From Streptosporangiaceae bacterium (lineage in GTDB: Bacteria > Actinomycetota > Actinomycetes > Streptosporangiales > JBOHCT01), in NCBI GenBank assembly GCA_050699055.1, contig JBOHCT010000002.1, positions 1 to 56,021 of the forward strand: DNA of 56,021 nt. The letters run 5' to 3'. Within the stretch, counting starts at the first letter, position 1, and every line of letters starts with the position of its first letter. Of the stretch, positions 11,105 through 45,497 are shown piece after piece. The notes beneath the pieces were generated by a model, which ran no database searches, was not told the origin of the DNA, and worked only from the letters and a program-made list of their open reading frames with translations. The position numbers were made by a program, and so were the translations under genes.

Positions 11105-11148
11105 CAGACCGCAGCATAGACAGCCTTGCAATACTCAATTATTTGTGT

Positions 11149-12170: not shown

Positions 12171-12448
12171 CGGGAGGCCGGCCCTACCGGGTACGTCTCA
12201 TGGGTCCCGCGCGGCGTGCGATCGCGGAGAAGCTACCGGAAGCCGTGGCCGCAGCCGTCCTCGAGTTTTGCGAGGGAGACCTCGCCGTGAATCCCCGCCG
12301 CGTGGGTAAGGAGTTGTTCGGCCCGTTCTCCGGCTGCCATGGCGCGCGTCGTGGCACGTACCGGGTCGTCTACCGCATCGACGAAGCGCGGCGCGTCGTG
12401 CACGTAGTCGACGTTGCTCACCGCAGAGATGCATACCGCCGGCGGTAA
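12167..12448 (+). CDS. RelE/ParE family toxin
   Basis: 4-nt overlap with the antitoxin stop. 'YRVRL...ARRAIAEKLPEAVAAAVLEF..GDLAVNPRRVGKEL..GARRGTYRVVYRIDEARRVVHVVDVAHRRDAY'. Confidence 0.8.
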   Translation: MTGGRPYRVRLMGPARRAIAEKLPEAVAAAVLEFCEGDLAVNPRRVGKELFGPFSGCHGARRGTYRVVYRIDEARRVVHVVDVAHRRDAYRRR

Positions 12449-12499
12449 GTCGTCCGGTACAGAGACGCCGAAATATCGCGCACACGGCTCCGGAGCGTG

Positions 12500-13041
12500 A
12501 TCGTGTGTAGAGGGCGACGTACGCTATGACCTGCTTCGATGGACCTGACAAGATTGCTTTCCTTGGCCCCGTGTCCAAGGCGTCGATGAAATCGTAGCTG
12601 GTCGGTATGTCGCCCGCGCTGGTGAACATCTCCCGTTCGGCCTGCATGCGCGCACGGGTGTAGGCAGTGGTGGGTCCGGCACTGGAGATCAAGACGGCCC
12701 GGTCGACTAGCTGTGGTCGGGTGCGGCATAGCTCCTCGGCGATGAAGCCGCCGAGAGACACTCCGATCAGGTGACAGCGTTCCAGGCCAAGATGGGCGAT
12801 CAGGTGTGCGGTGTCGGCGGCCATTGCCGCGATCGTGTACGGCGCCGGTGGGCCGTCGGAGGGGTCCACTCCTCTGCTGGCGAACGTGACCACTTGATAC
12901 CAGGCCTGGGTGAGGGCCGGGACAAGCAGATAGTCCCAGACGACGGGAGACATGCCGGCGCCGCCGATGAGTACGACCGGTGTGCCTGCGCCGTGGGGTT
13001 TGAAGGGCCAGCCGTACCCCGTCCGCTTCGACCGTGTCCAT
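12500..13041 (-). pseudogene. Alpha/beta-hydrolase, frameshifted near the 5' end and truncated at the 3' end
   Basis: 'MDTVEADGVRLA' (frame A) continues as 'FKPHGAGTPVVLIGGAGMSPVVWDY...GVSLGGFIAEE' (frame B) after a 1-nt shift near 13003-13010. Homology decays after about 12560 and the reading frame runs into the relE gene. Confidence 0.6.
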
Positions 13042-13206
13042 CAGCCGCCTTCTACGTTTGTCGAGTCATGCGGGTGCCGCGGCCGACGAAACTCGTTGCA
13101 ACTCGCGGCAGCCACAGTCGGGCCGTCGCCGCCACCTACCACCAGGTGTGGTGGCCCCACACCGACAACCCGGAGGCGCGTCGCCTGCGGCTGTCCGTCA
13201 CCGGCG

Positions 13207-13785
13207 CTAGAGCGTATTCGCGCGGCGGACCGCCTCGGCGGCGTCCTCGGCCCGCTGCCGGGCTTCGACGGTGAAACGCTCATCGAGGTCGCCTAGCTCC
13301 ACGTCGATCCGGACGAGCTCGGCGGCGGACCGCGCCGCCGCCTCCGCGAGAAGCACGGCGGTCCGCGCGTCGCCCACGAGGTTGGGGTTGCCCTCCCGGG
13401 CCAGCCGGGCGCCGAGCTCGGCCACCTCAGCGGCCACGCCCGCGATGCGCAGCGGGACCTCGGCCGCGCGTTCCAGGGACTCGCGAATGCGTGCGCCGGG
13501 TCCCGACCCACTCTCGCGGGGCAGCGCGTACGCGGCGAGGACGGCGCCGTACGCGTCGGCGTCGGCGTCGGCGAGCGGTCCCGCGGCGGCGCGCAGCTCG
13601 TCCGCGCGCCCGGCGACGTCCGCGGCGTCCCCGAGCCGCCCCTCGGAGTAGCGGGCCGCCATCGCGACCAGCCCGGCCGCCATCGCCGTGACGACCGCCG
13701 CGACGCACCCACCGCCGGGCGCCGGCTCCCGCGCGGCGACCGCGTCCAGGAACTCGCCGACGGTGGAGTCCAGGTACGACGTCAC
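13207..13785 (-). CDS. fchA: Cyclodeaminase/cyclohydrolase family protein (methenyl-THF cyclohydrolase-like, FTCD C-terminal type)
   Basis: 'VGEFLDAVAAREPAPGGGCVAAVVTAMAAGLVAMAARYS' is the family signature. It immediately follows fhs. Confidence 0.8.
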   Translation of the reverse strand: MTSYLDSTVGEFLDAVAAREPAPGGGCVAAVVTAMAAGLVAMAARYSEGRLGDAADVAGRADELRAAAGPLADADADAYGAVLAAYALPRESGSGPGARIRESLERAAEVPLRIAGVAAEVAELGARLAREGNPNLVGDARTAVLLAEAAARSAAELVRIDVELGDLDERFTVEARQRAEDAAEAVRRANTL

Positions 13786-15483
13786 TCAGAACAGCCCCAC
13801 GGTCTCCCCGTCGGCGTCGATGTCGACGTGCGCCGCCGCCGGGTCGCTGCCGAGCCCCGGCATCGTGCGCATGTCGCCGCAGATCGGGTACACGAATCCG
13901 GCGCCGGCCGCCGCGCGGACCTCACGGACCGGCAGCGTCCAGCCGGTCGGCGCGCCCTTGAGCGCCGGGTCGGCCGACAGCGACAGGTGGTTCTTGGCCA
14001 TGCAGATCGGCAGCCGGCCGAACCCGGCGCGCTCGTAGGTGTCCAGCGACCGTGCCGCCTCCGCCGAGTACTCGACGCCGTCCGCGCCGTAGATCTTCGT
14101 CGCGATAGCCTCGATCTTCTCCCGCAGCGAGGCGTCGTCCGGGTAGAGCAGCCGAAAGTCCGTCGGTTCGTCCACGGCCTCGGCCACCGCCTCGGCGAGC
14201 TCGGTCGCACCCCGTCCCCCGTCGGTGAAATGCGTCGACACCGCGCAGCGCGCCCCTTCCTCCTCGGCGATCTCGCGGATCACCTGGTACTCCGAGGGGT
14301 GGTCGGTAGGGAAGGCGTTGACCGCCACCACCGGGGTGACGCCGTGCACGCGGACGTTCTCGATCTGCTTGCGCAGGTTCGCCGCCCCGGCGGCCACGTC
14401 GTCCGGGTTCTCCGCGAGCAGCTCGTCCGGCAGCGGCCGGCCGGCCACGATCGTGTACTTGCCGGAGTGCGACTTGAGCGCCCGCACGGTGGCGACCAGC
14501 ACCGCGGCGTCGGGCCGTTCACCTGAGACCCGGCACTTGATGTTGAAGAACCGCTCAGCCCCCATGTCGGCGCCGAACCCGGCCTCGGTGATGTGCACGT
14601 CGCCGGTACGCAGCCCGATGAGGTCCGCCGTCACCGACGAGTTGCCCGTGGCGATGTTGCCGAACGGGCCGCAGTGCACGAGCGCGGGGGTGTTCTCGTA
14701 CGTCTGCAGCAAGTTCGGCTTGATCGCCTCGCGCAACAGGACCGTCATCGTCCCCGCGGCCTGCAGCTGCTCGGCGGTCACCGGCTCCCCGTCGCGCGTG
14801 TAGCCCACGACGATCCGCCCGAGCCGCTCGCGGAGGTCCCGCAGCGACGTCACGAGCGCCAGGGTGGCCATGACCTCGGACGCGGCGGTGATGTCGAAGC
14901 CGGTCTGCCGCGGCACGCCGTCGACCCGGCCGCCGAGGCCGACGACGAGGTTGCGCAACGCCCGGTCGTTGACGTCGAGTACCCGGCGCCAGGTGATGTT
15001 GTGCAGGTCGAGCCCGAGCGCGTTGCCCCGGTACAGGTGGTTGTCCACCATCGCGGCCAGCTGGTTGTGCGCCGCCGCGACCGCGTGCATGTCGCCGGTG
15101 AGGTGGAGGTTGAGCTTCTCCATCGGCACGACCTGGCTGTAGCCGCCGCCCGCCGCGCCGCCCTTGATGCCCAGGGCGGGGCCCATGGAGGCTTCCCTGA
15201 CCGCGATGGTCGCCTTGCGGCCGAGCTGGGTCATGCCCTGCCCGAGCCCGACGGTGGTCGTGGTCTTGCCCTCCCCCAGCGGCGTCGGGGTGATGCCGGT
15301 CACCACGACGTACTTGGCCCGCGGGCGACTGGCGAGCTCGTCGATCGCGTCCAGACTGATCTTCATCACGTCGCGCCCGTACGGCTCCAGCAGGTGGCTG
15401 CCCAGGCCCATCTCGCCCGCGACGTCCTCGATCGGCTTGAGCGCGGCGCTCCGCGCGATCTCCAGGTTGCTCGGAACCGTCAT
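13786..15483 (-). CDS. fhs: Formate--tetrahydrofolate ligase
   Basis: Start ATG 15483, 'MTVPSNLEIARSAALKPIEDVA...VVVTGITPTPLGEGKTTTTVGL'. Full-length, about 565 aa. Confidence 0.95.
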   Translation of the reverse strand: MTVPSNLEIARSAALKPIEDVAGEMGLGSHLLEPYGRDVMKISLDAIDELASRPRAKYVVVTGITPTPLGEGKTTTTVGLGQGMTQLGRKATIAVREASMGPALGIKGGAAGGGYSQVVPMEKLNLHLTGDMHAVAAAHNQLAAMVDNHLYRGNALGLDLHNITWRRVLDVNDRALRNLVVGLGGRVDGVPRQTGFDITAASEVMATLALVTSLRDLRERLGRIVVGYTRDGEPVTAEQLQAAGTMTVLLREAIKPNLLQTYENTPALVHCGPFGNIATGNSSVTADLIGLRTGDVHITEAGFGADMGAERFFNIKCRVSGERPDAAVLVATVRALKSHSGKYTIVAGRPLPDELLAENPDDVAAGAANLRKQIENVRVHGVTPVVAVNAFPTDHPSEYQVIREIAEEEGARCAVSTHFTDGGRGATELAEAVAEAVDEPTDFRLLYPDDASLREKIEAIATKIYGADGVEYSAEAARSLDTYERAGFGRLPICMAKNHLSLSADPALKGAPTGWTLPVREVRAAAGAGFVYPICGDMRTMPGLGSDPAAAHVDIDADGETVGLF

Positions 15484-15597
15484 CCTTGCCCTCCTCAGCC
15501 GCCGAGTGCTCGACATCCCGACCATCCACTCTCGCACCCGGGAGAATCTGTTCGCGAACCGTCCAGGGCAACGGGCACGCTGCCAGCGGAGCGTCCC

Positions 15598-16830
15598 TTA
15601 CCCGGACACGTCCAGCCCGGCCTCGGCACGCAGGATGTCGGTCTTGTCGGTCCGCTCCCAGGTGAAATCGTGCTCGGTGCGCCCGAAGTGGCCGTACGCG
15701 GCGGTCCGCCGATAGATCGGCCGATGCAGGTCGAGGTACTGGCGGAAGGCCGCGGGACGCAGGTCGAAATGCTTCTCCACGAGAGCGGCGATCGCGGAGC
15801 GCGGGATCCTCTCCGTGCCGAACGTCTCGATCAGCGTCGACAGCGGCCGCGCGACCCCGATGGCGTACGCGAGCTGGAGCTCGAGCCGGTCCGCGACGCC
15901 GGCGGCCACGAGGTTCTTCGCGACGTACCGGGCCGCGTACGAGGCCGACCTGTCGACCTTGGAGGGGTCCTTGCCGGAGAACGCGCCGCCCCCGTGGCGC
16001 GCCATCCCCCCGTAGGTGTCGACGATGATCTTGCGACCGGTGAGACCGGAGTCGCCCACCGGCCCTCCGATGACGAAACGGCCGGTCGGGTTGACGAAGA
16101 AGCTGTCCCGCAGCGTCCGCGGGTCGTAGAGATCCGTGGGGAGCACCGGAACGACCACGTGCTCCCACAGCGCGTCGGCCAGCTTGTCCTCCACACCCTC
16201 CTCGTGCTGGGTGGAGATCAACACCTTCTCGACCGCGACCGGTACCCAGTCGCGGTAACGCACGGTCACCTGCGACTTGCCATCCGGGCGCAGGTACGGC
16301 ATGACCCCGCTCCTGCGCATATCGGCCATCCGGTGAGCCAGTCGATGGGCGAGCGCGACCGGCGCCGGCATCAGCTCCGGCGTCTCGCGCGTCGCGTAGC
16401 CGAACATCATCCCCTGATCGCCCGCTCCAACGCGGTCGTAGTCGTTGGTCACGTCTCCGTGTCCCTGGTGCTCCCGCCACTCCTGCGCGGCGTCGACCCC
16501 TCGAGCGATGTCGGGCGACTGCTTGTCCAAGGCGGTGAGGACGGCGCAGCACTTCCCGTCGAAACCGTAGACGCCGTCGTTGTAGCCGATCTCGCAGATC
16601 GTGTCGCGGGCGATCTGGGCGAAGTCGAGCACCGCGCTCGTCGTGATCTCCCCGGCCACGAGAACCAGACCGGTCGTGAGGAGGGTCTCACAGGCGACCC
16701 GCGAGCAGGGGTCCTCCCGCAGGGCGGCGTCCACGACCGCGTCGGAGATCTGGTCCGCGATCTTGTCCGGATGCCCCTCGGTGACCGACTCCGAGGTGAA
16801 CAGGAAGTCGTCGTCTTCGTGCCTGCCCAT
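15598..16830 (-). CDS. metK: S-adenosylmethionine synthetase
   Basis: '[27 protein letters not shown]', '[12 protein letters not shown]' and '[19 protein letters not shown]'. Confidence 0.97.
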
Positions 16831-17987
16831 CAGGGTGCTCCCTTCTCCGCCCGCCCCACGCCGGCGCCCTCGATGCCTGTTCCTGAACTTCGTCGGCGTC
16901 GGCCCGGTGCCCTGCCGTGAGGACCGCCCTTCGCCGCTCCGTCGCCCGCGCCGCCTCGGCCGATCTCACGCCGTACGCTCGAGGTGCCCGCGACCATCGC
17001 GCGCAGCTTGGCGCGCGCGATGGCGGGCGGGAGGTGACGCAGGCCGCAGTCGGGGTTGATCACCAGCCGCTCGGCGGGAATCACCGCCAGCGCCCGCCTG
17101 ACCCGGTCGGCGACGACGTCGGCGGTTTCCACGCCCTCGCTCTTCACGTCGATCACCCCGAGTCCGAGGGCCCGGTCCCAGGGGTAGCGGCGGAACAGCT
17201 TGAGGTCGTCGTAGCCCTTGCGCGCGAACTCCAGCACGAGCTGATCCACCCGAGCGTCCAAGACCGCGGGGAAGAGGAAGTCGTAGTGCCCCTCCCAGGA
17301 GGGCCGGGCGTAGCGGTTGCCGTAGCAGACGTGCAGTGCCCAGGTCGCGTCCACGTCACGGGTCACGATGTTGACGGCCTCGACGGCGAGCGCGATCTGC
17401 TCCGGGTACCCGGCGAGGAAAGGCTCGTCGATCTGCAGCAGCCGCGCCCCCGCCCTCGCGAGCTGTCTCGCCTCGGCGTTCAGGACCGCGGCGAGGGCCC
17501 TGACCAGGTCGGCCCTGTCGGAGTAGGCCTCGTTCCCGATCCTCCTGGACAGCGAGAAGGGCCCGGTGAAGGAGAACTTGATCGGCCGGTCGGTGCTCTC
17601 ACGGGTGAAGCGGTAATCGGCGGCCAACCCCAGGGGCATGTCCTCGCTCTCGGGGAGCGGACTGCTGACCACCGCGTCGTAGTAGTCGTAGTAGTACGAC
17701 TTCGCCCCCCGGGGGATACCGAGGCCGGGGATCTTCACGAGCAGGTAGTCGATGTCGTTGTCGCGCCGGAGCTCGCCGTCGGAGACGATATCGATCCCCG
17801 CGCGCTCCTGATCCTTGACGGCCGCCTTGATCGCGACGTCGTGGATCTCCCGCAGGTAGTCGCCGCTGATGCGCCGCTGGTGGTAGTCCGTCTTGAGGCG
17901 CTCCAGCCACTCGGGCACGGAGTACGAGCCGACCACAGTGGTCGGCAGCAGCGGCACGCCAGAGGCCTTCAACCGGCGCGGAGACAT
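16830..17987 (-). CDS. Short (core) MetE-like cobalamin-independent methyltransferase, C-terminal-domain-only type
   Basis: '[15 protein letters not shown]', '[13 protein letters not shown]', '[10 protein letters not shown]', 'HVCYGN' and '[13 protein letters not shown]' are Meth_synt_2-like motifs. A ~45-aa low-complexity tail follows. The stop overlaps the metK start (ATGA). Confidence 0.8.
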
Positions 17988-17997
17988 ACGGTTCCCG

Positions 17998-19500
17998 TCA
18001 CTCTCGCACCTGGGCGGTCAGGGTCACGATGTTGGACGCCGTCCGGTGCGCGAACGGCGCGCAGCGGACGTCGAAACCCCGCCTGGTCCCGATGTTCTCC
18101 AGGAGCGGGCCGTTGACCCAGTTGACCACGGACCCGTCGTACTTCCCCGGTCCACGGAACCCCGTCTGGTACTGGTGGAGGTCGGTGACGAACAGGTCAT
18201 GGCACTGGAGTCGGCCGTAGGGATGCAGCAGCGGGAGGGTGTCGTCGAAGCTCGCCACCGCCCCGTTGTTCACGTGCATCCGTACGTCGCCGTCGGCCTC
18301 GAGCAGAGGTCGCAGCGCCTCGCCCGTCACCCGAGGGGCTACCTCGTACAGGTCGAGGCCCTCCAGCGGGACGTACCGCTCCTCCAGGCGCAGCGCCAGC
18401 CAGGCCTGCCGCCAGAAGCGGACGGCAGCCCCCACCGCCGGGAACCTGTCGGGCAGGGCCTCGCTCATCAGCTCGGGTCCGAGCCTGAGCAGCTTCGCGA
18501 CAAGCCCGGGGACCTCGTGGGACTGGACCGACACCTGCTCCGCGATCTCTTGGGCGGCCGTGGGAGAAAGGTAGGCCCGCACGTCGATTCGGTACGCCCG
18601 CCCGCCGATGTAGGCGATCTCGTCGCTCGGCAGGTTGTCGTAGACGTTGGAGATGTAGACGAGGAACGCCTTGTACCGCAGGAACCCCAGCGACGTGGTC
18701 GGCCGGGTCGCGTCGAGCACCAGCGAGCTGACGTGGGCGGCGTGGTGGGCGACCGCGGTCTGCGCCTTGCTGAGGACGTGCGGTGAGTAGTCGCCCATGA
18801 GGTAGTGCAGGCGCCGGTAGTAGTCGGCGCCGTGCGCGCGGTCGAGGGCGACGAACTCGTCCAGCCATGTCCTGGCCTGGTTGCCGTTGCCGACGCCGAG
18901 CTCCACCACGTAGAGCTCGGCCGGCAGCGCGTCACGGGCCGCCAGGTCGTCCCAGACCCGGAACAGGTCGAGGATGAGCTCGCGTACGGCGTCCCTGTTC
19001 CTGGCGTCGCTCTCGCCGCCGGGCAGCGCCTGTTCGTACCGCTGGCCGGTCGCCTCCTCCCACAGCGACAGCGCCTGCCAGTACAGGGCGTTGAACCCCC
19101 AGACGCAGCTGTCCACGCCCGGCCGCCACGTCTCCAGGTAGCGCCGCCCGAGGGCGTCGGGACTCTGGTTCCCCCGCAACACCTCCTGGGTCACGGCCTT
19201 GATGTCCACCTCCCCGCAGCGCCGAAGGTCGACGGCGACCTCCACCCCGTCCTCATGACCCGCCGCGTCCGTGCCGAGTTCCGGGGCCGCGCCGGGCGCG
19301 AGGATGCGGCGCAGGTCGATGACCGCACGGAAGTTGTTCTTGTACTGAATCCAGTCGCACACCACACGGAGGCGGGAAAGGTCGACGGCGTCCTCGCAAG
19401 GGTCCTCGCAGAGGGCCTGGACCACCGGCCCCAGCGAGGCGGTCACGTCCATCGGCTGGGATCCGCGCAGCCGCTTGGTAGGACGGACGTCAACGTGCAC
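17998..19500 (-). CDS. Large atypical class I SAM-dependent methyltransferase (500 aa)
   Basis: GTG start with a GGAGGGAG Shine-Dalgarno. Motif I 'VVELGVGNGNQ' and later 'VYISNVYDNLPSDE'. To my eye it distantly resembles the MidA/NDUFAF7 (DUF185) layout. Confidence 0.6.
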   Translation of the reverse strand: MHVDVRPTKRLRGSQPMDVTASLGPVVQALCEDPCEDAVDLSRLRVVCDWIQYKNNFRAVIDLRRILAPGAAPELGTDAAGHEDGVEVAVDLRRCGEVDIKAVTQEVLRGNQSPDALGRRYLETWRPGVDSCVWGFNALYWQALSLWEEATGQRYEQALPGGESDARNRDAVRELILDLFRVWDDLAARDALPAELYVVELGVGNGNQARTWLDEFVALDRAHGADYYRRLHYLMGDYSPHVLSKAQTAVAHHAAHVSSLVLDATRPTTSLGFLRYKAFLVYISNVYDNLPSDEIAYIGGRAYRIDVRAYLSPTAAQEIAEQVSVQSHEVPGLVAKLLRLGPELMSEALPDRFPAVGAAVRFWRQAWLALRLEERYVPLEGLDLYEVAPRVTGEALRPLLEADGDVRMHVNNGAVASFDDTLPLLHPYGRLQCHDLFVTDLHQYQTGFRGPGKYDGSVVNWVNGPLLENIGTRRGFDVRCAPFAHRTASNIVTLTAQVRE

Positions 19501-20527
19501 GGCTGCTCCCTCCGGCCGTGACGGCCTCGCCGGCCTCTCCCGCGCCTCCGGCGGCTTCGACCCGGGCGCGCCGGAGGATCTCGGGGACGGCCGTCTCGTG
19601 GCCGAACGACATCACGTGGATACCCGCGACGCCCGGGATCGCCTTCAGGCGCTCGATGGTCTCGACGCAGACGCGCATGCCCTCCTCGGCGACACGGTCG
19701 GCGGGCACGCCGCGGAGGCGACGGGCGACGCTGTCGGGGACGTACAGACCCGCGACCTTGGTGCTCATGTGGTCCAGCGCCCGAAGCGAACGGATCGGGC
19801 CCACCCCGGCGAGGATTCCGCAGCGTTCGTGCAGCCCGAGGTCGCGGACCTCGGCCATCCAGCGCTCGAACGCGTCCACGTCGAAGACGAACTGGGTCTG
19901 GGCGAACCGCGCCCCCGCCGCGACCTTCTTGGCCAGGCGCCGGGCACGGAAATGTACGGGCGGGGCGAACGGGTTCTCGACGGCGCCGACGAACACTTGC
20001 GGCGGTGGCCGGAGTCGGCTCCCCGACAGCAGCCTGCCCTGGTCCCGCATCGTGCGCGCCGCCCACACCAGCTGAACGCTGTCGAGGTCGAAGACCGGCT
20101 TCGCCCCAGGGTGGTCGCCGAACCGTGGATGGTCACCGGTGAGCAGCAGCGCGTTGGGGATGCCGAGGGCCGCGGCGGACAGCAGGTCGGACTGGAGTGC
20201 CAGCCTGTTCCTGTCGCGGCAGGTGAGCTGCATGACCGGCTCGACGCCCACCTCCAGCGCCAGCAGGCTGCCGGCCCAGCTTGACAGGCGCACGAACGCG
20301 CTCTGGTTGTCGGTGACGTTCGCGGCGTCCACCCACCCGCGGAGCGCCGCGGCCTTGCGGCGGATCACCTCGGCGTCCGAGCCGCGCGGGGGGCCGATCT
20401 CCGCGGTCACGACGAACCGTCCGGAGTCGAGGGCGGCGCGGAGCCGACCTGGCCCAGATGATCGCCCGGCACCGCCCGAGCCGTTACCGGGGGACCGCCC
20501 GTCGACCTCGTCCGGCACCAGCGTCAT
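19490..20527 (-). CDS. metF: Methylenetetrahydrofolate reductase (MetF)
   Basis: 'FVVTAEIGPPRG', 'ANVTDNQSAFVRLSS' and 'VMQLTCRDRNRLALQSDLLSAAALGIPNALLLTGDHP'. Confidence 0.9.
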   Translation of the reverse strand: MTLVPDEVDGRSPGNGSGGAGRSSGPGRLRAALDSGRFVVTAEIGPPRGSDAEVIRRKAAALRGWVDAANVTDNQSAFVRLSSWAGSLLALEVGVEPVMQLTCRDRNRLALQSDLLSAAALGIPNALLLTGDHPRFGDHPGAKPVFDLDSVQLVWAARTMRDQGRLLSGSRLRPPPQVFVGAVENPFAPPVHFRARRLAKKVAAGARFAQTQFVFDVDAFERWMAEVRDLGLHERCGILAGVGPIRSLRALDHMSTKVAGLYVPDSVARRLRGVPADRVAEEGMRVCVETIERLKAIPGVAGIHVMSFGHETAVPEILRRARVEAAGGAGEAGEAVTAGGSSRAR

Positions 20528-21102
20528 CGCGCCGCGACCTCGTCGTCGCGGAGGATGCTCGGAGGCGCCGCGAGGCCGCCGTCATCCGTCCACAGGCCCT
20601 CGTCCCTGCCCTGCCAGTAGTTCACCCAGGAACTCTGGCCCCACTGCCGGTGATCGATGGGACGCTGCAGCAGTGCCAGGTCGCCCGCGTGCCCTTCCGC
20701 CTCGGCGCGCTCGTAGGCGACCAGCCACACGCAGCGCATCTCCGGGTAGACCTCGCACGCCCCCGACTGCGACACGCCCCCACACGGTCCGTTGCGCAGC
20801 TGCTTCGGGCAGCTCATCGGACACGCGTATCCCGTCGCGGGCAGAGCGCACTGACCGCACATCTCGCAGCCGAACGCGGCGCCTTTGACGCCTTCCTCGG
20901 CTCTGGTAAAGATCTTGTACAGCCAAGGGGTCGCCTCGAGTCGCGCGGCCAGCTTCGCGTACAGCGCATTGGGCTCGAGAAAGCGATGCAGGCGGTACAT
21001 CGCGCGGGCGGACAAGGACGGCGTCCTCGGCCGCGGCCACGCCTGGCCGCCGGCGTCCTTGGCCCCCGGCTCGTCCGACCTCTGACGCCCGCGCTTCTTC
21101 AC
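20524..21102 (-). CDS. metV: MTHFR C-terminal-domain (MetV-like) Cys-rich subunit
   Basis: 'FGCEMCGQCALPATGYACPMSCPKQLRNGPCGG' is the signature of the MetV/MTHFR_C family. 4-nt overlaps on both sides. Confidence 0.85.
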   Translation of the reverse strand: MKKRGRQRSDEPGAKDAGGQAWPRPRTPSLSARAMYRLHRFLEPNALYAKLAARLEATPWLYKIFTRAEEGVKGAAFGCEMCGQCALPATGYACPMSCPKQLRNGPCGGVSQSGACEVYPEMRCVWLVAYERAEAEGHAGDLALLQRPIDHRQWGQSSWVNYWQGRDEGLWTDDGGLAAPPSILRDDEVAAR

Positions 21103-21377
21103 CGTCGACCCTCAGGAACGCGGGCCGGTCCGTCGGGGACGCTGAGGAACGACGAGCCGCGCAGGCGCGCGACGGTCTCGCGGAGCTGTCGGACCTCGCT
21201 GGTCAGCGCGTCGATGGTCTCCGTCTCGGCCCGGCTGCTCCTGCGCGCAGCCACCTCGCGCAAGAGCTCGACCTCCCGGGACAGCCCGTCCATGCCGTCC
21301 ATGCCCGCCGCCTCCGCACCGCCCGCCGGCGATCCGCAGTAAGGACACCTTGGCGCGCCGTTGCTCATGCTGTTCAT
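21099..21377 (-). CDS. Small CxxC zinc-ribbon-like / coiled-coil protein (about 92 aa), first gene of the C1/SAM operon
   Basis: 'MNSMSNGAPRCPYCGSP...' followed by heptad-like 'LSREVELLREVAARRSSRAETETIDALTSEVRQLRETVARL'. The stop overlaps the metV start. Start is 21377 or 21368. Confidence 0.5.
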   Translation of the reverse strand: MNSMSNGAPRCPYCGSPAGGAEAAGMDGMDGLSREVELLREVAARRSSRAETETIDALTSEVRQLRETVARLRGSSFLSVPDGPARVPEGRR

Positions 21378-21576
21378 GCCAACCCACTTCGACGACGTCC
21401 ATTGGGGACCGAACGAGACCGAACGAACGATCTGTCTCTCATCCTCCGCGACGGGCCGTCCGTGGTCATCGGGCCGGCCCACGAAGTTCGACGGACGTTC
21501 TTTGTGTTCGCGCCACAATTGGCCACGTCACAAACGCCGAAGGGCAACGGCTCAGAAAGCGAGTCGGATTATGGCG

Positions 21577-22632
21577 TCATTCAATCGAAACTGTCACCGG
21601 CCTGCTCTGCCACGTCCATCCCGGACAGACCGAGGAGAAACGCCCGACCGGTCCGCCGGCCGCTATCACCAAGAGGTCGTCCTCGCTCGTGACCGCCCGC
21701 ACAGGCCCGGCCACCGAGCCTGCCGACTTTTCGAGGACCTCGGCGGGAACGCGGGCGCCATCGGCGATGAACTTCTTCACCTCGGCCTTCGTCCACGACG
21801 CCTCCCGGAGGATGTCCCGATGCTCCTTGGCGAACGCGACCAGCTGCGGGGCGTTCCTCCGGCCCTCGACGCCGCTGCCGACCGCCGCGCTCGCGACGGT
21901 ATACGCCACCGCGGAAAGGATGGCCTCGGGGCTGCTGTCCTGCACACTGACCTGGCGCGGCGCCTCACAGCCCAGCATCGTGACCGCGCTCTGACCGGCG
22001 GTCATGCCGCGCTCGACATGCAGCGGCTCCCACGGAGAGTCCTCCTCGTCCTCCGCGATGCAGTACGAGTACTTTCCGGGATGGCCCAACGTCGCACGAT
22101 CCAAGACACCCGGCACGGCTTTCGCCACATTCTGGAGAATCAGCCGCAACGCCCTACCAATGGTGGCGTTGGCCCTTACGCCATGGCCGAAGACGTTGCC
22201 TCTCGCGTTCATTCCGATGCGCTCGCGAATCGGGCCACTCACGATCGCCAACGGCGCCGCTCCCTTCGTACTGCACGCCACGCCGTACAGCGCGAAGCGA
22301 TCGGCCAGCATCGCCTCGACCGCCGCGAGCACCACCGGGCCGTACTCCGGGCGGCATCCGGCCAGCACCGCGTTCGCGGCGACGTGACCGACCGTCGCCT
22401 CGACGTCGCCCGGCGGGACCGTCCCGACCACCGTGTCCGACGTCCTGCCCATGGCGGCCACCATCGCCGCCACGTTCTCAGCCGTCGGAGGCAGCACGGG
22501 CAATCCGTCGCAGAGATCCGACGCGAGGTATTCCTCCACAATCGCCGCCGCGTCAGTGCGCCGCGCGTCGCTCGCTCCGTCCACGGTCGGATCACCGTCA
22601 CTTTCATGATCGCGAACACTTTTCCACCCCAC
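21577..22632 (-). CDS. Uncharacterised conserved protein, paralog P1 of 3
   Basis: Shares 'DGLPVLPPT', 'LAGCRPEYGPVVLAA', 'STKGAAPL..VSGPIR', 'RANATIGRALRL', 'HPGKYSYC', 'EDEEDSPWEPLHV' with 22698-23756 and 25805-26929. Start is GTG 22632 or GTG 22584. Confidence 0.75.
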   Translation of the reverse strand: MGWKSVRDHESDGDPTVDGASDARRTDAAAIVEEYLASDLCDGLPVLPPTAENVAAMVAAMGRTSDTVVGTVPPGDVEATVGHVAANAVLAGCRPEYGPVVLAAVEAMLADRFALYGVACSTKGAAPLAIVSGPIRERIGMNARGNVFGHGVRANATIGRALRLILQNVAKAVPGVLDRATLGHPGKYSYCIAEDEEDSPWEPLHVERGMTAGQSAVTMLGCEAPRQVSVQDSSPEAILSAVAYTVASAAVGSGVEGRRNAPQLVAFAKEHRDILREASWTKAEVKKFIADGARVPAEVLEKSAGSVAGPVRAVTSEDDLLVIAAGGPVGRFSSVCPGWTWQSRPVTVSIE

Positions 22633-34822: not shown

Positions 34823-35746
34823 TCAGGCGAACACGATCGTCTTGTTCTGGTGCACGATGACCCTGTCCTCCAGGTGCCACGACACGGCCCGCGCGAGCAC
34901 CACCCGCTCGACGTACCGTCCCATGCGGCGCAGGTCGTCCGTGGAATGCCGATGATCGACACGGACCACGTCCTGCTCGATGATCGGCCCGGCGTCGAGC
35001 TCCTCCGTCACATAGTGGGCGGTCGCACCGATCAGCTTCACGCCACGCTCCGCCGCGGCGCCGTAGGGGTTCGCGCCCACAAACGCCGGCAGGAAACTGT
35101 GGTGAATGTTGATGACCTGGCTGGGGAACTCCTGGAGAAAGCTCCCGGACAGCACCCGCATGTACCGGGCCAACACGATGAGATCGACCTCCCCGACCAG
35201 CAGCTTCAGCTGCTCGGCCGCCGCGGCGGCCTTGTTCTCCTTGGCGACGGGGACGTGTCGGAAGTCGATCCCCCAGCCCCGCACCTTCTCCTCGAGGTCC
35301 GGGTGGTTCGAGATGACCATACGGACATCGGCGCGCAGCTCACCAGAACGCCAGCGCCAGAGGATCTCTTGGAGGGCGTGATCGGCCTTGGAAGCCAGGA
35401 TCGCGACGCGCTTCCGCCTGCCGGCCTGAGCGAGCCGCCAGCTCATATCGAAGCTGGTGGCAAGCGCCGCGCATTCGTACTCCAGCTCGGTGAACTGTTC
35501 GGCGAGACCGGGCAGATAGAACTCGAGGCGAAGAAAGAATGTCCCGCCGAAGGGATCGGTGGAGTACTGCTGCGACTCCAGGATATTCGCTCCCCTACGG
35601 TACAGGAACTGAGAGACCTCGAACACGATCCCCGGCCGGTCCGGGCATCTGATCAACAGCCGACCGACGTCCCGGTAGCGGTCCTCGTCCCGTTCGCTGG
35701 ACTTTGCCGCGGTCCTGGGTCCCTGAGCCGTGGGACTGTGGTCCAT
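34823..35746 (-). CDS. purU: Formyltetrahydrofolate deformylase
   Basis: N-terminal ACT domain '[28 protein letters not shown]'. Formyltransferase core '[17 protein letters not shown]' and '[17 protein letters not shown]'. Start ATG 35746 with a GGGAGG Shine-Dalgarno. Confidence 0.92.
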
Positions 35747-36032
35747 CCGGTCGCCTCCCGCGTACAAGTCGCCCGTAATCGGCGAGGTCGCCGGTTACAT
35801 ACTCCACACCAGTCGACACACGATGCTCTCCGCGTCAAGGATTCATTACGCCTGGTTCAGTGGACAACGTGACGCTCACAGTGTTTACGCCTGTCCGGTT
35901 GTGCCATCGCCACAAACCGCGTCGAAGATCGCCGCACGTAGACACGGGGCCGAGCGACAACTCGTCGGAGCTCTCCCGCTCGCACCGTCCGTACCGGCAC
36001 TATCGGCACCTGCCGCGGCTCCGGCCGGCGAC

Positions 36033-37871
36033 TCAGATCGCCCCGAGCAAGCGGTCGAGGGCGGCGGGATCGCCGCCTGGGGGTGTGAGGACAACTCCGT
36101 CGACCAGCGGTCGGGCCGTACGCAGGAGATCGATCGCCACGTCGAGTCCGACGCGGGCGCCGTCCTGTCCCGCCTGTTCCATCGTGGCCAGTGTGGCCTC
36201 GGGAATCCGCAGGTCGGGAACCTCATGAGCGAGATAGTCGGCCTCGGCGAAACTGCGCAGCGGGACGATGGACGCGAAGATGGGCACCCTCTCGTCGCCC
36301 AGCGCGTCGATCATTCTCCGGAGAGTATCGACGTCGTACACCGGCCGCGTGATGAGGAACTGTGTCCCGGCCTGGACCTTGCGGCGGGTCCGTGCGATCT
36401 CCGCCTCGACGTCCTGCGCACCAGGGTTGAAACGCGCCCCGATGTGGAAGGAGGTCTTGGTCGCGAGGGACAGCCCGTTGCAGTCGCGACCCTCGTTGAG
36501 GCCGACCAGCAGGTCGACAAGACCGATGGAGTCGACCTCCCAGATGCCGTCGGCGTTGGGGTAGTCGCCGAGGAGCGGAGGGTTGCCGGTCTCGCAGACC
36601 ACGTTGACGACTCCGAGGGCGTGCGCGCCTAGGAGGTCCGCCTGCAGGGTCATGATGGTCTTGTCCCAGGTTGTCGCCGTCGCGATCGTCTCCACGCCGA
36701 CCCGTTGTTGGAGGTGGAGAGCGAGGTTGATGGAGCCGAGCTGGGCCCTCGGAGTCTGTCGGGTGGTCACGCACACCAGGTCGATACCACGCTCGCGCAG
36801 CCCTGCCACCTGGTGGGTCGCCTCATCGGCGACGCCGCCGAGCGGCGGGACGATCTGCGCGGCGACCACGAACCTTCTGTCGGCCAGGCGCTCCGCCGCC
36901 GTCCCGCCGCTGCCCACCATGCCGCCCACCATGGGCGATGTGGGAGGCTGCTCCGCATGGGCCGCCGGCGGCCCGCTGCGGACGGGTACGCGCGTCAGCT
37001 CCGCCGTCGCGGCCCGAAGATGGGTGGGCGTCGTGCCGCAGCATCCCCCGATCAACGTCACACCCGCGTCGGCGAGCCGCCGCGCGTAGCGCGCGAAGTA
37101 TGCCCCGTCGACGTTGTACTCGAACCGCCGGCCGTCGACCCGGCGCGGAAGTCCGGCGTTGGGCAGGGCGCTCACCGGCAGCGTGGTGTGTGTGCGCAGC
37201 GCCTCGACCACGGCGAGCGTTCTCTGTGGACCGAGCGTGCAGTTGGTGCCGAGCGCGGCGACGGGCAGCTCGCCGAGGGCCCTCGCCACCTCCAAAGGGC
37301 TTTCCCCCCCGAGGGTGTTGCCGTCGTCGGCGAAGGTCGCCTGGGCGACGACCGGCACATCGCTGATCTCTGTCGCCGCCCCTGCCGCCTCCACGAGCTC
37401 CTCGAGATAGCCGAAAGTCTCCAGGATCACCAGGTCGACCTCCGCGTCCACGAGGGCCTCGACCTGCTCGCGGACCGCCGCGACGCGGTGAGCCGCTTCG
37501 ACGCGACGCCGCTGGTGTACCGTCACCGCCGGCGATACCGAGCCGGCGACGAACACCGCCCGGTCCGCCGTCCGTTTCGCCTCATGAGCGACGCGGACGC
37601 CCGCGGCGTTGATGTCCCTGACCATGTCGGCGTAGCCGTGGGCGGCGAGCCGCAGCCGGCTCGCGCCGAACGTGTTGGTCTGGATGACGTCGACGCCCGC
37701 GCTGATGTAGCTCTCGTGGATCGTGCTGACCAGTGCGGGATCGGAGATGTTGAGCTCGGGCAGCGCCCGGTCGAGCGAGTTGCCCGCGGCGTGCAGCATC
37801 GTGCCCATGGCTCCGTCGCAGACGAGCATGCGACGGCCCAGTGCGTCGGTGAAACTGTTGCCCATAGTCAT
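36033..37871 (-). CDS. Bifunctional homocysteine S-methyltransferase / methylenetetrahydrofolate reductase (YitJ-like fusion)
   Basis: N-terminal 'LVCDGAMGTML', 'IQTNTFGA' and 'GGCCGTTPTH' form the Hcy-binding S-methyltransferase domain. The C-terminal half is MTHFR-like ('FLITRPVYD'). The start ATG overlaps the PucR stop (ATGA). Confidence 0.85.
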   Translation of the reverse strand: MTMGNSFTDALGRRMLVCDGAMGTMLHAAGNSLDRALPELNISDPALVSTIHESYISAGVDVIQTNTFGASRLRLAAHGYADMVRDINAAGVRVAHEAKRTADRAVFVAGSVSPAVTVHQRRRVEAAHRVAAVREQVEALVDAEVDLVILETFGYLEELVEAAGAATEISDVPVVAQATFADDGNTLGGESPLEVARALGELPVAALGTNCTLGPQRTLAVVEALRTHTTLPVSALPNAGLPRRVDGRRFEYNVDGAYFARYARRLADAGVTLIGGCCGTTPTHLRAATAELTRVPVRSGPPAAHAEQPPTSPMVGGMVGSGGTAAERLADRRFVVAAQIVPPLGGVADEATHQVAGLRERGIDLVCVTTRQTPRAQLGSINLALHLQQRVGVETIATATTWDKTIMTLQADLLGAHALGVVNVVCETGNPPLLGDYPNADGIWEVDSIGLVDLLVGLNEGRDCNGLSLATKTSFHIGARFNPGAQDVEAEIARTRRKVQAGTQFLITRPVYDVDTLRRMIDALGDERVPIFASIVPLRSFAEADYLAHEVPDLRIPEATLATMEQAGQDGARVGLDVAIDLLRTARPLVDGVVLTPPGGDPAALDRLLGAI

Positions 37872-39241
37872 GACCCTTCCCCCAGGGCGTCCAGGATCTC
37901 GAGGGCGACCTGTGCCATCAGCCGGTCGCGGTAACGGTCGAAGGTGAGACCCGTGATCTCCTCGCTGCGCCTGACCCGGTAGGCGACGGTGTTGGGGTGC
38001 ACATGCAGCCTCCGCGAGACCCGCTGTGGACTGTTGTTCTCGCGGAAGTACCACGACAGCGTCATCAGGTACTCAGAGTTGTGCTCGCGCTCGTAGGCGC
38101 TGAGCCTACCGAGCACCTCCTCCGCGAATCGCCGCAGCTCGCCGAGCTCGGGAACCTGCAGCAACAGGCGATGGATGCCGAGGTCCTCGAAGGCGACGGT
38201 CTGCCCCAGCCGGCCCAGGCGCCGAGCGGCGTCGACCGTACGCCGCGCCTCGGCGTAGGAGCGCGCGATCTCGCCGGGCTCACGGCAGGTGTCGCCGATA
38301 CCGACCGTCATCACCGTACCGGGCAACTGCTCGGCCACCCGCGCCGCACACGCCTCGGCGAGCCGACGCGGCTCCAACAGGGGCGTACTCCTCCCGACGG
38401 GCTCGGGGACCACGACGACGACCTCCGAGTCGCGGACCGACGTGATCGTCTCGGGTTCGCGCGTGGCGAAGAAGCGCTCGACCGCGCTGACTCTCCGGTG
38501 ACGCGAGCTATCGACGTCCCCAGTGTCGCGCTCAGGGCCGCCCTCGGCACCGTCCCCGGCACGGTTCTTGGGGCCCCCGAAGGCCACTGATAGCACGCGG
38601 TGGTCACGGCCCGAGTCGTATCCCAGGTGCCTGGCCCAGCGGTCCGCCTCGCCGTTCTCGCGGCCGCGCCCGAGCAGCAGGCCCTCGACCAGGTCGCTGC
38701 GCACCCGGCCGGCCGCCGCGGCCACGACACGCTCGCGGCTGAGAATCACCCCACAGATCGTGGCGGCATGCTCGCTGACCAGGAGGCTGATGTCGTCCGC
38801 CCGCCCCTCGCCGGTGTCGACGGCCATGAGATAGGCGGGGACCTCCTCCCCGACCAGGATCGGCGCCACCACGACGGACATGTTCTGGCTGGGGTCGGGG
38901 AGCCGCAGCGACCGCCGCGTCTGCGCGGTGGCGCTCAGCGCCCTGCTCAGCCGCGGGTTGAGGACGACGTCCCGGACGAAGTCGCCGGCGTCCTCGGCCG
39001 CCGCCCGAGGTGCGGCGGCGGCCCATACCTCCATCGTCCGGCTGACGACCGCCACTGTGGAGGAGGTTCGTTCCGCGAGCAACCGCGTGACTGTCGAGAT
39101 CTCGGCGTTCTGCAGCGCGAGTCCGGACAGGTGCCGGTAGATGGTGACGAGCTCGCGAAGCACGCTGGTCTCGCGACTCACGGCGTTCTGGCCCGCGACC
39201 TCTTCGGCGGGCCCATCCGCTGCTGGCCGTCTGTCCGCCAC
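37868..39241 (-). CDS. PucR/CdaR family transcriptional regulator
   Basis: C-terminal 'SPQRVSRRLHVHPNTVAYRVRRSEEITG' is the PucR HTH. The N-terminal sensor region is GAF-like. The start is uncertain (GTG 39241 or 39181). The ORF-track start at 39673 is rejected on codon usage. Confidence 0.8.
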   Translation of the reverse strand: MADRRPAADGPAEEVAGQNAVSRETSVLRELVTIYRHLSGLALQNAEISTVTRLLAERTSSTVAVVSRTMEVWAAAAPRAAAEDAGDFVRDVVLNPRLSRALSATAQTRRSLRLPDPSQNMSVVVAPILVGEEVPAYLMAVDTGEGRADDISLLVSEHAATICGVILSRERVVAAAAGRVRSDLVEGLLLGRGRENGEADRWARHLGYDSGRDHRVLSVAFGGPKNRAGDGAEGGPERDTGDVDSSRHRRVSAVERFFATREPETITSVRDSEVVVVVPEPVGRSTPLLEPRRLAEACAARVAEQLPGTVMTVGIGDTCREPGEIARSYAEARRTVDAARRLGRLGQTVAFEDLGIHRLLLQVPELGELRRFAEEVLGRLSAYEREHNSEYLMTLSWYFRENNSPQRVSRRLHVHPNTVAYRVRRSEEITGLTFDRYRDRLMAQVALEILDALGEGS

Positions 39242-39426
39242 ACCCTCAACATAGCGGCGCGGCTCCCCCGGGAGCTTGTGGCGGACAACAAAACGGCTGG
39301 GTCCGGAGTTGTTGGACCCATGATGCTCGCGACGGGCCGGTCGCCGCATCGACGGCGCGGACCGAGGGATCCTTGCCGCGTGTGTTTCGGCGTACGGAAT
39401 AAGTGACCGCGACGCCCAATCTTGGC

Positions 39427-39438
39427 GACGACCGTCAA
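39427..39438 (-). promoter_or_regulatory. Core 12-mer GACGACCGTCAA (TTGACGGTCGTC on the minus strand), copy d, upstream of the PucR gene
   Basis: Exact 12-mer shared with 27555-27566, 34690-34701 and 44221-44232. Confidence 0.45.
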
Positions 39439-39600
39439 CGCGATATCTTCCGAGTGTCCGGTCGCGTGCGGGGAGTTCTTTGCCGCCGCGGCGATCCAGG
39501 CGGATGGATCGCAAGACGGAGGAGGAGCGCGTAGTGATGTCCGCGCCCACCTGGTAGAGCCGTCCCGGGTCATTACCGGGCCTCCCGATAGACTTGCACC

Positions 39601-40533
39601 ATGGCGCAGCCGGGTATGACCTCACCCGGGCAGGGCGAGGAGGCGGGACTCGAGACCCGGGGGTCGCGGGCACAGACGCAGCACACGCTGCTGACCATCC
39701 TCGGTGACTATTGGTACGAGCGAGACGAGTACCTCCCCTCCGCGGCCCTCGTCGAACTCCTCGCCGAGTTCGACGTGACGGCGTTCAGCGCCCGCGCCGC
39801 GTTGACCAGGTTGACCCGTCGGGCGCTACTGCGCTGGGAGAAGCGCGGACGGCGTACCTTTTACGCGCTCACCGGCCGGGCGGCCGCCGTCCTTACCGAG
39901 GGCGGCCGCAGGATCGTTTCCTTCGGCGCGCACGATGCTCCTTGGGACGGTCAGTGGGCCTTCGTCGCGTTCTCTGTTCCGGAGTCCCGACGACCGATTC
40001 GACACATACTCAGAGAACGGCTGCGATGGCTCGGGTACGCGCCGCTCTACGACGCCCTGTGGGTCTCCCCACGGGACAGGTCCGCGGAGGTGCGTCGGGT
40101 CCTCGACGACCTCGACCTGCGAACCGCGACCCTGTTCACCGGCTCCATGCATACGGCCTCCCCCACCTGCGGAAGCCCGCTGGTCGCCTGGGATCTCGAG
40201 GAACTACGTCGCTACTACGAGACTTTCGCCGCCGAGTGGCGGCCGTGGGCGGAACGTACCCGCAGCGGCTCTGTCACACCGGCGCAGGCCCTTGTCGCCC
40301 GTACCGAGGTCATGGACAAGTGGCGTACCTTCCCCAGACTGGATCCCGAACTTCCCCGCACGCTCCTGCCCCAGGGGGGGCTCCGGACCGAGGCCAGGCA
40401 ACTGTTCGTCGACATCTACGACGGACTCGGCCCGCTCGCCGAGCTGCGTGTACGTCAGCTTCTCACCCGCTACAACCCGCGACTCGCCGAGCTCGCCACG
40501 CACCATACGACCGGCCAACTGCTGCGGATCTGA
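39601..40533 (+). CDS. PaaX family transcriptional regulator
   Basis: 'LLTILGDYWYERDEYLPSAALVELLAEFDVTAFSARAALTRLTRRALL' and 'LRWLGYAPLYDALWVSP'. Confidence 0.85.
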   Translation: MAQPGMTSPGQGEEAGLETRGSRAQTQHTLLTILGDYWYERDEYLPSAALVELLAEFDVTAFSARAALTRLTRRALLRWEKRGRRTFYALTGRAAAVLTEGGRRIVSFGAHDAPWDGQWAFVAFSVPESRRPIRHILRERLRWLGYAPLYDALWVSPRDRSAEVRRVLDDLDLRTATLFTGSMHTASPTCGSPLVAWDLEELRRYYETFAAEWRPWAERTRSGSVTPAQALVARTEVMDKWRTFPRLDPELPRTLLPQGGLRTEARQLFVDIYDGLGPLAELRVRQLLTRYNPRLAELATHHTTGQLLRI

Positions 40534-45472: not shown

Positions 45473-45497
45473 CCTGTCCCTCGGGCGGCGTCGCGGT

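Follow-up and report, generated by a model that had tools for sequence, protein, structure and literature searches.

The window analyzed here is a stretch of 56,021 nucleotides from a Streptosporangiaceae bacterium (GenBank assembly GCA_050699055.1, contig JBOHCT010000002.1, positions 1 to 56,021) with a G+C content of ~69–70%. It carries a cassette of eight consecutive minus-strand genes at 21377–13207, all of which are present where a first reading of the sequence (the original prediction) had placed them, and the analysis centers on the 500-aa protein, designated X, that is embedded in this cassette among enzymes of methyl-group supply. Gene identities were assigned by Pfam and NCBIfam profile searches of the window proteins. 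The first gene encodes a small CPYC protein of 92 aa with a coiled-coil tail (21099..21377), followed by the small Cys-rich subunit MetV (20524..21102; PF12225, 93.9 bits) and the catalytic subunit MetF (19490..20527; PF02219, 125.9 bits) of methylenetetrahydrofolate reductase (MTHFR). X itself (17998..19500) is assigned to the MidA/COG1565-like class I methyltransferase fold by its motifs and predicted fold. It is followed by a 385-aa core-MetE (16830..17987; PF01717, 157 bits), the S-adenosylmethionine (SAM) synthetase MetK (15598..16830; TIGR01034, 549 bits), the formate-tetrahydrofolate (THF) ligase Fhs (13786..15482; PF01268, 816 bits; NF010030, 801 bits against a cut-off of 652), and an FchA-like methenyl-THF cyclohydrolase of the FTCD_C family (13207..13785; PF04961, 124 bits). 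The last of these scores 106.6 bits against NF045657, which has a cut-off of 275, and is therefore assigned at the family level only. These identities uphold the predicted route from formate to 10-formyl-THF and methenyl-THF, and from methyl-THF to methionine and SAM.

The packing of the cassette is non-random, with the genes joined by overlaps or tiny gaps except at the spacer between metK and fhs. Read from the sequence, the first two junctions are 4-nt overlaps (ATGA between metV and metF), metF and X overlap by 11 nt, X and core-MetE are separated by 10 nt, and fhs and fchA are joined with a gap of 0. These overlaps and gaps agree with the original prediction, which is corrected at two places: core-MetE and metK overlap by 1 nt (TGATG), and the spacer from the metK stop to fhs measures 115 nt rather than 114, with a GAGGAGG Shine-Dalgarno sequence preceding the fhs ATG at 15482. 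The GTG start of X at 19500, and hence the 11-nt overlap, is supported because the first 16 residues of X are kept in homologues and the same overlap is called in two relatives (L001 and L003). For the CxxC gene, the alternative reading frame 21112–21402 was rejected, with a G+C content at third codon positions (GC3) of 0.61 compared with 0.86 for the frame 21099–21377. The CPYC protein gave only sub-threshold Pfam matches (DUF6779, E 3e-4), and homologues with 41–45% identity occur in 5 of the 80 genome loci described below, there on the opposite strand; it does not belong to what is conserved in the module. The MetV translation contains the Cys-rich motif FGCEMCGQC...CPMSCPK...GPCGG and has an N-terminal extension with a GC3 of 0.97, and MetF gives only weak matches to MTHFR sequences of solved structure. 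The two genes form an MTHFR of the MetVF type, in which a PF02219 protein is joined through a 4-nt overlap to an adjoining PF12225 protein carrying the Cys metal motifs.

X has no match at threshold in Pfam or NCBIfam, the best being PF02636 (Methyltransf_28) at 15.1 bits (E 0.016; gathering cut-off 23.3). Some of its relatives pass the PF02636 cut-off (P0135, for instance, at 29.1 bits), and 27 of 52 aligned members match it at E≤0.01. Searching solved structures with phmmer returned only noise (antibody light chains), and a profile of the X family found no match there at E≤10. The AlphaFold2 (AF2) model of X is of high predicted quality (pLDDT 89.3, pTM 0.90), and its best Foldseek matches are MidA/NDUFAF7 (5zu0, 5ztz) and the bacterial COG1565 proteins 4f3n, 4g67, and 1zkd, at probability 1.0, E values of 3.5e-8 to 2e-6, and TM scores of 0.40–0.43 on the query and 0.48–0.55 on the target, with other class I methyltransferases ranking below them. 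Sequence identity to these structures is 10–12%, and relative to them X has an extra N-terminal domain of ~130 aa. The model has the class I Rossmann methyltransferase fold with COG1565 architecture. In an alignment of 52 sequences including fusion proteins, E200 and G202 of motif I (E200-x-G202) and D237 and S239 of the D237-x-S239 motif at the ribose-binding position are invariant, as are N289, L290, and P291 of motif IV (N285-V-Y-D-N-L-P291), in which N285 and D288 are kept in at least 90%. We take these motifs to be the equivalents of the COG1565 cofactor motifs (ExGxG, (D/E)xS, and N..D.LP) from knowledge of the family rather than from a residue-level structural alignment. The family also keeps D263-A264 and a set of positions of its own, comprised of W134-x-F-N-x-x-Y-W141, R308, W363, H426, and G450-P-x-K...W461. 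The annotation of the 500-aa gene as a methyltransferase rests on the predicted MidA-like fold and the cofactor motifs and not on PF02636, whose score stays below the cut-off. From this model X appears to be a divergent member of the MidA-like proteins, and its predicted pocket for SAM or S-adenosylhomocysteine (SAH) seems intact.

The gene product next to X, core-MetE, consists of a lone Meth_synt_2 barrel of fewer than 400 aa and has no Meth_synt_1 domain (PF08267 stays under its cut-off, at 23.3 bits). In the family alignment, the Zn ligands (H219, C221, E253, and C314) do not vary, the homocysteine-binding residues S21, E71, and D187 are kept, and the motifs GSYS, DGE, and IDEP match those of 3rpd and MetE, where the homocysteine-binding Ser, Glu, and Asp of core methionine synthases are as defined in PMC7857596. 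Judged by these residues, core-MetE is a genuine Zn-dependent homocysteine S-methyltransferase that lacks the N-terminal folate barrel. Its best NCBIfam match is PRK04326 (295 bits; cut-off 406) and its best solved structure is MesD 3rpd (142 bits). Assignment as MesD, for which PMC7857596 requires at least 390 bits to ACIAD3523, was rejected in view of the 142 bits to 3rpd and the lack of a DUF1852 gene in the window and the related loci. No Meth_synt_1 match was found in the adjoining X, and no corrinoid or CODH/ACS genes were found in the annotated neighborhoods; MesA, MesB, and MesC are associated with corrinoid proteins (MtrA or the Wood-Ljungdahl CoFeSP) in strict anaerobes. In the plasmid collection, the best matches to core-MetE are haloarchaeal methionine synthases at 36–39% identity, with none above 39%, and X has none. 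The cassette MetK scores 513 bits against the Escherichia coli MetK and 466–472 bits against mycobacterial MetKs, and the X-linked MetK of a Streptosporangiaceae genome is 60–64% identical to the Streptomyces, E. coli, and Bacillus enzymes alike, which hints that the cassette MetK may be a divergent extra copy. As a side observation, PLSDB holds 83 Streptomyces plasmid records with a metK copy, and it also holds whole chromosomes filed as plasmids, such as Nonomuraea gerenzanensis at 11.85 Mb and an E. coli record of 4.8 Mb.

Relatives of X number more than 2,000 in a large protein collection (653 clusters at 50% identity), the best 120 of them at 63–74% identity, and turned up in 517 or more species genomes and on at least 490 metagenome contigs. 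Those that carry a name are all called "hypothetical protein" or, generically, "SAM-dependent methyltransferase." The family is found in soil Actinomycetota and Acidobacteriota and, as fusion proteins, in Planctomycetota and Bryobacterales. Synteny was compared over 160 related loci, all selected through X, of which 80 come from species genomes (X at 59–68% identity in Pseudonocardiaceae, Streptosporangiaceae, Geodermatophilaceae, Haloechinothrix, Actinomadura, and Pseudonocardia sulfidoxydans); 68 loci, 52 from Actinomycetota genomes and 16 from Acidobacteriota, have full flanks. Gene order around X is strongly conserved in these relatives. A core-MetE of the same clade (at least 45% identity) directly follows X in 112 of the 126 loci that are long enough (68/74 genome and 44/52 metagenome loci), and the distance between the stop codon of X and the MetE start has a median of −1 nt in the genome set and −13 nt in the metagenome set.

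In Actinomycetota the order is MetV-MetF-X-MetE, and among the 52 full-flank loci MetF is found near X in 37, MetV in 33, MetK in 43 (counted within 6 kb of X), AhcY in 19, a PfkB kinase in 22, and a YitJ-type fusion in 25. The Fhs-FchA pair lies downstream of X in ~20 loci of the whole genome set, and a variant operon, X-MetE-MetK-PfkB-AhcY-Fhs-FchA, comprises the whole activated methyl cycle. The window itself contains neither ahcY, as the original prediction had pointed out, nor an adenosine kinase; the SAH hydrolase gap is nevertheless not general, with relatives holding AhcY and the adenosine-kinase-like PfkB in the same operon. The more distant X proteins (36–44% identity) belong mostly to Acidobacteriota of the group "Candidatus Acidiferrales," where the order X-MetE-MetF-MetV(-Fhs) occurs in 15 of the 16 full-flank loci and neither MetK nor AhcY is near X in any (0/16 each). 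In the annotated Acidiferrales loci, MetF and MetV form one fused protein. The link of X to MetK and AhcY is confined to Actinomycetota.

X is also found as part of an MTHFR polypeptide. Twenty-one protein clusters (830–1273 aa; two partial) from Phycisphaerae/Planctomycetota and Bryobacterales combine MTHFR, MetV, and X, and one protein (P0253) joins MTHFR to X. The clusters are 38–41% identical to the query, indicating that the fusion architecture is old and conserved. The AF2 model of one fusion (P0196) spans 1194 aa with a pTM of 0.72; in it the N-terminal domain is, as modeled, a genuine MTHFR barrel that aligns to MTHFR with a TM score of 0.75. At one locus (L086) a stand-alone PF02574 homocysteine methyltransferase precedes an MTHFR-MetV-X fusion, and at another (L045), where only a remnant of core-MetE is left, X has a PF02574 gene as its immediate neighbor. 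In at least three phyla X thus travels with MTHFR and with a homocysteine methyltransferase, which may have one or the other of two unrelated folds. An apparent X-core-MetE fusion (P0290, 679 aa; L087 8001–10040) was rejected as a long-read frameshift artifact, in which identity drops in mid-protein and then resumes. No acceptor-related, polyketide synthase (PKS), nonribosomal peptide synthetase (NRPS), or export genes recur beside X in the annotated neighborhoods of any lineage.

Within the window, the cassette is separated from the gene upstream by a lower-GC spacer of ~200 nt, and a promoter-like site, GTGACA-18-CATAAT (21568..21597, minus strand), precedes this spacer. The site matches the consensus at 10 of 12 positions, is a consensus match only, and is the sole one in 12800–21800, where 0.2 would be expected. 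The cassette had been described as directly following an xGSC/P module, a continuity that is broken by this spacer and promoter-like site. At gathering score, no Rfam family was found in the window or in L001 and L003, and hence no known SAM or SAH riboswitch; leader control of this kind was set aside after a permissive Rfam scan of 21000–21700 gave a single chance microRNA match.

Farther upstream lie PurU (34823–35794, minus strand; 383 bits, cut-off 286), a YitJ-type fusion of homocysteine S-methyltransferase and MTHFR (36033–38072, minus strand; PRK08645, 536 bits, cut-off 453), and a PucR-like regulator (37868–39673, minus strand). In L001 and L003 the PucR, YitJ, and PurU genes directly abut metV or metK, and the stretch 34823..39673 is the distal part of the same methionine/C1 cluster. 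Because the flanking genes adjoin in these relatives, the block between them at 21.5–34.8 kb, which contains an Opp/Dpp-type ABC importer, an LLM oxidoreductase, two UGSC genes, three paralogues, and an alcohol dehydrogenase, interrupts the methionine/C1 super-cluster and looks like an insertion within it. A link between the cassette and the UGSC module, also part of the original prediction, was not supported in any full-flank locus (0/68), and the UGSC genes, the three paralogues, and the NDMA-dependent alcohol dehydrogenase are absent near X from all 68. Linkage of the LLM oxidoreductase, alcohol dehydrogenase, and UGSC genes to the cassette was accordingly rejected. The window as a whole contains two MTHFRs and three homocysteine methyltransferases, which hints that the cassette may not be the sole copy of these functions.

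Several features of the inserted block and its surroundings were recorded in their own right. One UGSC gene (23829–24362, minus strand) has an in-frame TGA in the context "...IVTGIGD-U-GSCSAC..." and is a predicted selenoprotein, and the other (26929–27507, minus strand) has Cys at the U position ("GVGDCGSCS") and passes NF041046 and PF24696. The three paralogues of ~350 aa (21577–22632, 22698–23756, and ~25805–26950, minus strand) have a common "DGLPV(L/V)PP" motif, match no Pfam or NCBIfam family, and are interleaved with the UGSC genes, the NDMA-dependent alcohol dehydrogenase (24684–25910), and the F420-type LLM oxidoreductase (27614–28588). An oligo_HPY-type ABC ATPase (29710–31728, minus strand) contains Gly-Ala-Ala repeats ("GAAGAAGAAGAA...") at about aa 426–469, inside the nucleotide-binding domain, and this run produces a spurious collagen match in Pfam. 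The third homocysteine-methyltransferase-like gene of the window (Meth_synt_2; PRK06520, 443 bits) lies at 44591–46718 on the minus strand; it shares an overlap with the gene of an intradiol catechol-type dioxygenase and comes after that of a Peripla_BP_6 binding protein. On the other side, an alpha/beta hydrolase gene (12198–12953, minus strand) follows fchA by ~250 nt, and a Phd/YefM antitoxin (11694–12170, plus strand), a SnoaL-like protein (11098–11577, plus strand), and a PadR regulator (10559–11131, minus strand) are encoded beyond it.

The original prediction regarded X as an orphan SAM consumer embedded in its own supply line. This role is probably wrong, because X is tied more closely to MetE and MetF than to MetK and AhcY and is fused to MTHFR; its partners across phyla are a homocysteine methyltransferase and MetF/MetV. 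X is instead likely to work together with MetVF and the homocysteine methyltransferase as their functional partner. The cassette would then be a self-contained methyl-making module, running from Fhs and FchA through MetVF and core-MetE to MetK, in which X would be an intrinsic subunit at the conversion of methyl-THF to methionine. This placement is reached by elimination, since both kinds of partner homocysteine methyltransferase are without a methyl-donor domain and MetF is the sole folate-binding protein in the module. The YitJ-type proteins, one of which is encoded in this window, show that an MTHFR can function in a single chain with a homocysteine-binding domain. By sequence, core-MetE most resembles the catalytic subunits of split MetE; these depend on a second subunit, whose place X may take. 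As a tentative mechanism, X could dock MetF/MetV to the homocysteine methyltransferase such that the methyl-THF formed by MetF is consumed on the spot, and its MidA-type SAM/SAH pocket could sense the SAM/SAH ratio and gate the committed flux. X would in that case be a prokaryotic functional analogue, on an unrelated fold, of the C-terminal regulatory domain of eukaryotic MTHFR. Complex formation, binding of SAM, the adaptor or regulatory role, and the reductive direction of flux are what we infer from these patterns, and we put the probability of the explanation as a whole, a methyl module with X as its coupling or sensing subunit, at roughly 0.5.

Several points weigh against this explanation. 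The near-invariant motif IV and the complete SAM-methyltransferase fold exceed what a sensor or scaffold needs and suggest real methyl-transfer chemistry, and for this reason models in which X consumes SAM, methylates a protein, or relays methyl groups through bound SAM are kept as rivals. No folate-binding member of this fold is known. The predicted models are of monomers only and the evidence for a complex is indirect, and the pairing of core-MetE with X was counted only in loci selected through X. MetVF does not adjoin X in ~22 of the 52 actinobacterial loci, where the operon has the form X-MetE-MetK-PfkB-AhcY-Fhs-FchA and also fits a SAM consumer. Finally, PurU in the same cluster would serve oxidative flux, and the direction of MetVF cannot be read from sequence.

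The rival that survives best, although we consider it unlikely, is that X is an active SAM methyltransferase acting on a bulk or special acceptor, such as a metabolite or osmolyte, with the other genes boosting the activated methyl cycle. The class I fold with conserved motifs I, II, and IV, the actinobacterial operons that hold the full methyl cycle, the presence of MetK within 6 kb in 43 of 52 loci, and the appearance of the X-linked MetK as a divergent extra copy are all in keeping with it. In a variant of this model, X would methylate methionine to S-methylmethionine (SMM) and form an SMM cycle with the adjoining homocysteine methyltransferase; PF02574 enzymes are the classical SMM/SAM:homocysteine methyltransferases and natively accept sulfonium donors, and one locus (L092 5433–7223, minus strand) encodes a 597-aa fusion of PF02574 with a generic class I SAM methyltransferase beside X, MetK, and AhcY, which could be an SMM cycle in one polypeptide. 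Such a cycle would, however, be futile and would leave the MTHFR linkage unexplained. The consumer model is further opposed by the Acidobacteriota and the fusions, beside which MetK, AhcY, and PfkB are absent (0/16 in Acidobacteriota) while MetE and MetF/MetV are present, by the difficulty of rationalizing the fusion of a consumer to MTHFR-MetV, and by the fact that acceptor-pathway, transporter, and biosynthetic genes never recur beside X. A precedent for genes that recycle SAM for a single methylation is the dedicated SAM-regeneration set for estrogen methylation in Denitratisoma (PMC7448270), and some natural-product clusters likewise carry SAM-cycle genes. The actinobacterial X variants are similar to such sets in co-locating metK, ahcY, adenosine kinase, methionine synthase, MTHFR, and C1-THF genes. 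They differ in that X loci are without PKS, NRPS, ribosomally synthesized and post-translationally modified peptide (RiPP), or cobalamin methyltransferase genes, in that no consuming pathway was identified, and in that X is tied across phyla to MetE and MetF rather than to MetK and AhcY.

The fold of X raises a second alternative, that it is a MidA-like protein methyltransferase or assembly factor that modifies or chaperones MetF, MetV, or the homocysteine methyltransferase. NDUFAF7/MidA acts on NDUFS2, in which it methylates an arginine while complex I is being assembled, and MidA/NDUFAF7 and COG1565 are both the closest structural relatives of X, with equivalent motifs, and the only functionally characterized branch of the fold family. 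The tight operon coupling of X to its putative substrates and the conserved, catalytic-looking motif IV would also be explained. In contrast to MidA, the genomic context of X is methionine synthesis and not respiratory complex I, and the resemblance amounts to 10–12% identity and TM scores of ~0.4–0.55, with no significant sequence-level match to solved structures. Catalytic amounts of a modifying enzyme would suffice, whereas X is linked to its partners by translational coupling or fusion. The homocysteine methyltransferases beside X are of two unrelated folds, which makes a common target site unlikely except on MetF, and MetF does not adjoin X in 22 of the 52 actinobacterial loci. We regard this alternative as improbable.

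A role in oxidation was considered on the basis of three Acidiferrales genomes (L168–L170), in which the X-MetE-MetF/V module lies beside the protocatechuate 3,4-dioxygenase genes pcaHG, IclR regulators, and AMP-dependent (aromatic-type CoA) ligases, along with a TonB-type outer-membrane protein, acetone-carboxylase-like genes, and, in one genome, a VanA-like oxygenase. In this model methyl groups would come from methylated substrates such as methoxy-aromatics, and methyl-THF would be partly trapped as methionine and the rest oxidized to formate, with MetVF, cyclohydrolase, and Fhs/PurU as the oxidation steps in the manner of Sphingobium ligM-metF-ligH. Clusters of MetF and Fhs do serve methyl-THF oxidation in known demethylation pathways (PMC11868366), and the window holds PurU, the NDMA-dependent alcohol dehydrogenase, and the Meth_synt_2 paralogue beside the intradiol dioxygenase. 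Set against this, no pcaHG genes are near X in any of the 160 other loci, and the aromatic-catabolism context is treated as real in the three genomes and specific to their lineage, a single subclade. No THF-dependent demethylase of the GcvT/LigM type was seen, the actinobacterial MetK/AhcY/PfkB context is biosynthetic, core-MetE keeps all homocysteine-binding residues, and X is left without a role. An oxidative module is therefore quite improbable. As a separate observation, a Meth_synt_2 paralogue like that at 44591–46718 adjoins pcaHG in two of the three genomes (L168 and L169).

Highly improbable, finally, is that X with tightly bound SAH/SAM (or a similar thioether/sulfonium) is a cobalamin-free methyl relay, charged by MetVF from methylene- or methyl-THF and discharged to homocysteine through the homocysteine methyltransferase. 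MetVF-X and the donor-less homocysteine methyltransferase would then make up a cobalamin-free methionine synthase whose prosthetic group is SAM instead of B12, or, just as well, X would be an enzyme that directly recharges SAH to SAM. Such a relay would account together for the fusion to MTHFR-MetV, the intactness of the SAM pocket, and the two donor-domain-less partner folds, one of which (PF02574) natively takes sulfonium donors, but making a sulfonium from methyl-THF is strongly uphill (~+40 kJ/mol by rough estimate), is without precedent, and needs low-potential electrons or very tight differential binding.

Returning to X as a partner of MetVF and the homocysteine methyltransferase, the closest described counterpart is MesD, a core methionine synthase with an obligatory DUF1852 partner, MesX (Price, Deutschbauer & Arkin 2021, PMC7857596), which does not need methyl-THF. 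Both systems combine a Meth_synt_2-only synthase of ~340–390 aa with intact Zn and homocysteine sites and one adjoining, uncharacterized partner gene, and both occur in aerobic-type soil bacteria. The partner differs, however, being a MidA-like Rossmann protein instead of DUF1852, and core-MetE reaches only 142 bits to 3rpd. The X system, unlike MesD, is physically tied to an MTHFR, and because of this tie to MetVF the methyl source of the X-linked system is probably methyl-THF. In archaeal split MetE, the catalytic subunit is the nearest annotated relative of core-MetE and the two-gene architecture with an adjoining partner is the same, whereas the partner there is a Meth_synt_1 folate-binding subunit and X is an unrelated protein with a SAM-methyltransferase fold. 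YitJ-type proteins (PRK08645) resemble the X system in joining MTHFR to the methionine-forming step without a separate pterin-binding domain, and differ in that the MTHFR of the X system is of the MetVF type and is fused to or adjoins X and not a homocysteine-binding domain. With eukaryotic MTHFR, the fusions (P0196, P0178, and P0271–P0289) have in common a catalytic barrel followed by a C-terminal putative SAM-binding module, and feedback control of the committed step, putative for X, would be a common logic; X differs in having a class I methyltransferase fold.

The X family and its link to methionine synthesis were not found described in the open literature, including the papers on the Mes families, and no description of the X system was found in the literature on COG1565/DUF185, on actinobacterial MetVF with methionine synthase, or on MetE-like O-demethylases. 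A preprint on the mlp cluster and a paper on the SYK-6 MTHFR were checked as related accounts and are unrelated. The routes of methionine synthesis listed in a 2026 paper (PMC13059711) are MetH, MetE, and MesA–D only. The conserved pairing of X with methionine enzymes points to an undescribed way to make methionine or to control its synthesis. The accepted set of routes to methionine comprises MetH, MetE, split MetE, and the four Mes families, to which X would add a fifth partner-dependent system, and there is a small chance that this partner-dependent core methionine synthase tied to MetVF involves genuinely new chemistry. If X is required, it would provide a testable answer to how methionine synthases that lack a folate domain obtain their methyl groups, and it would fill gaps in metabolic reconstructions, such as the apparent methionine auxotrophy and B12 dependence of soil metagenome-assembled genomes. 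SAM regulation of MTHFR is described as lacking in prokaryotes (2026 review, PMC13001107), and if X is a SAM sensor, the MTHFR of these bacteria would be the first SAM-regulated prokaryotic MTHFR.

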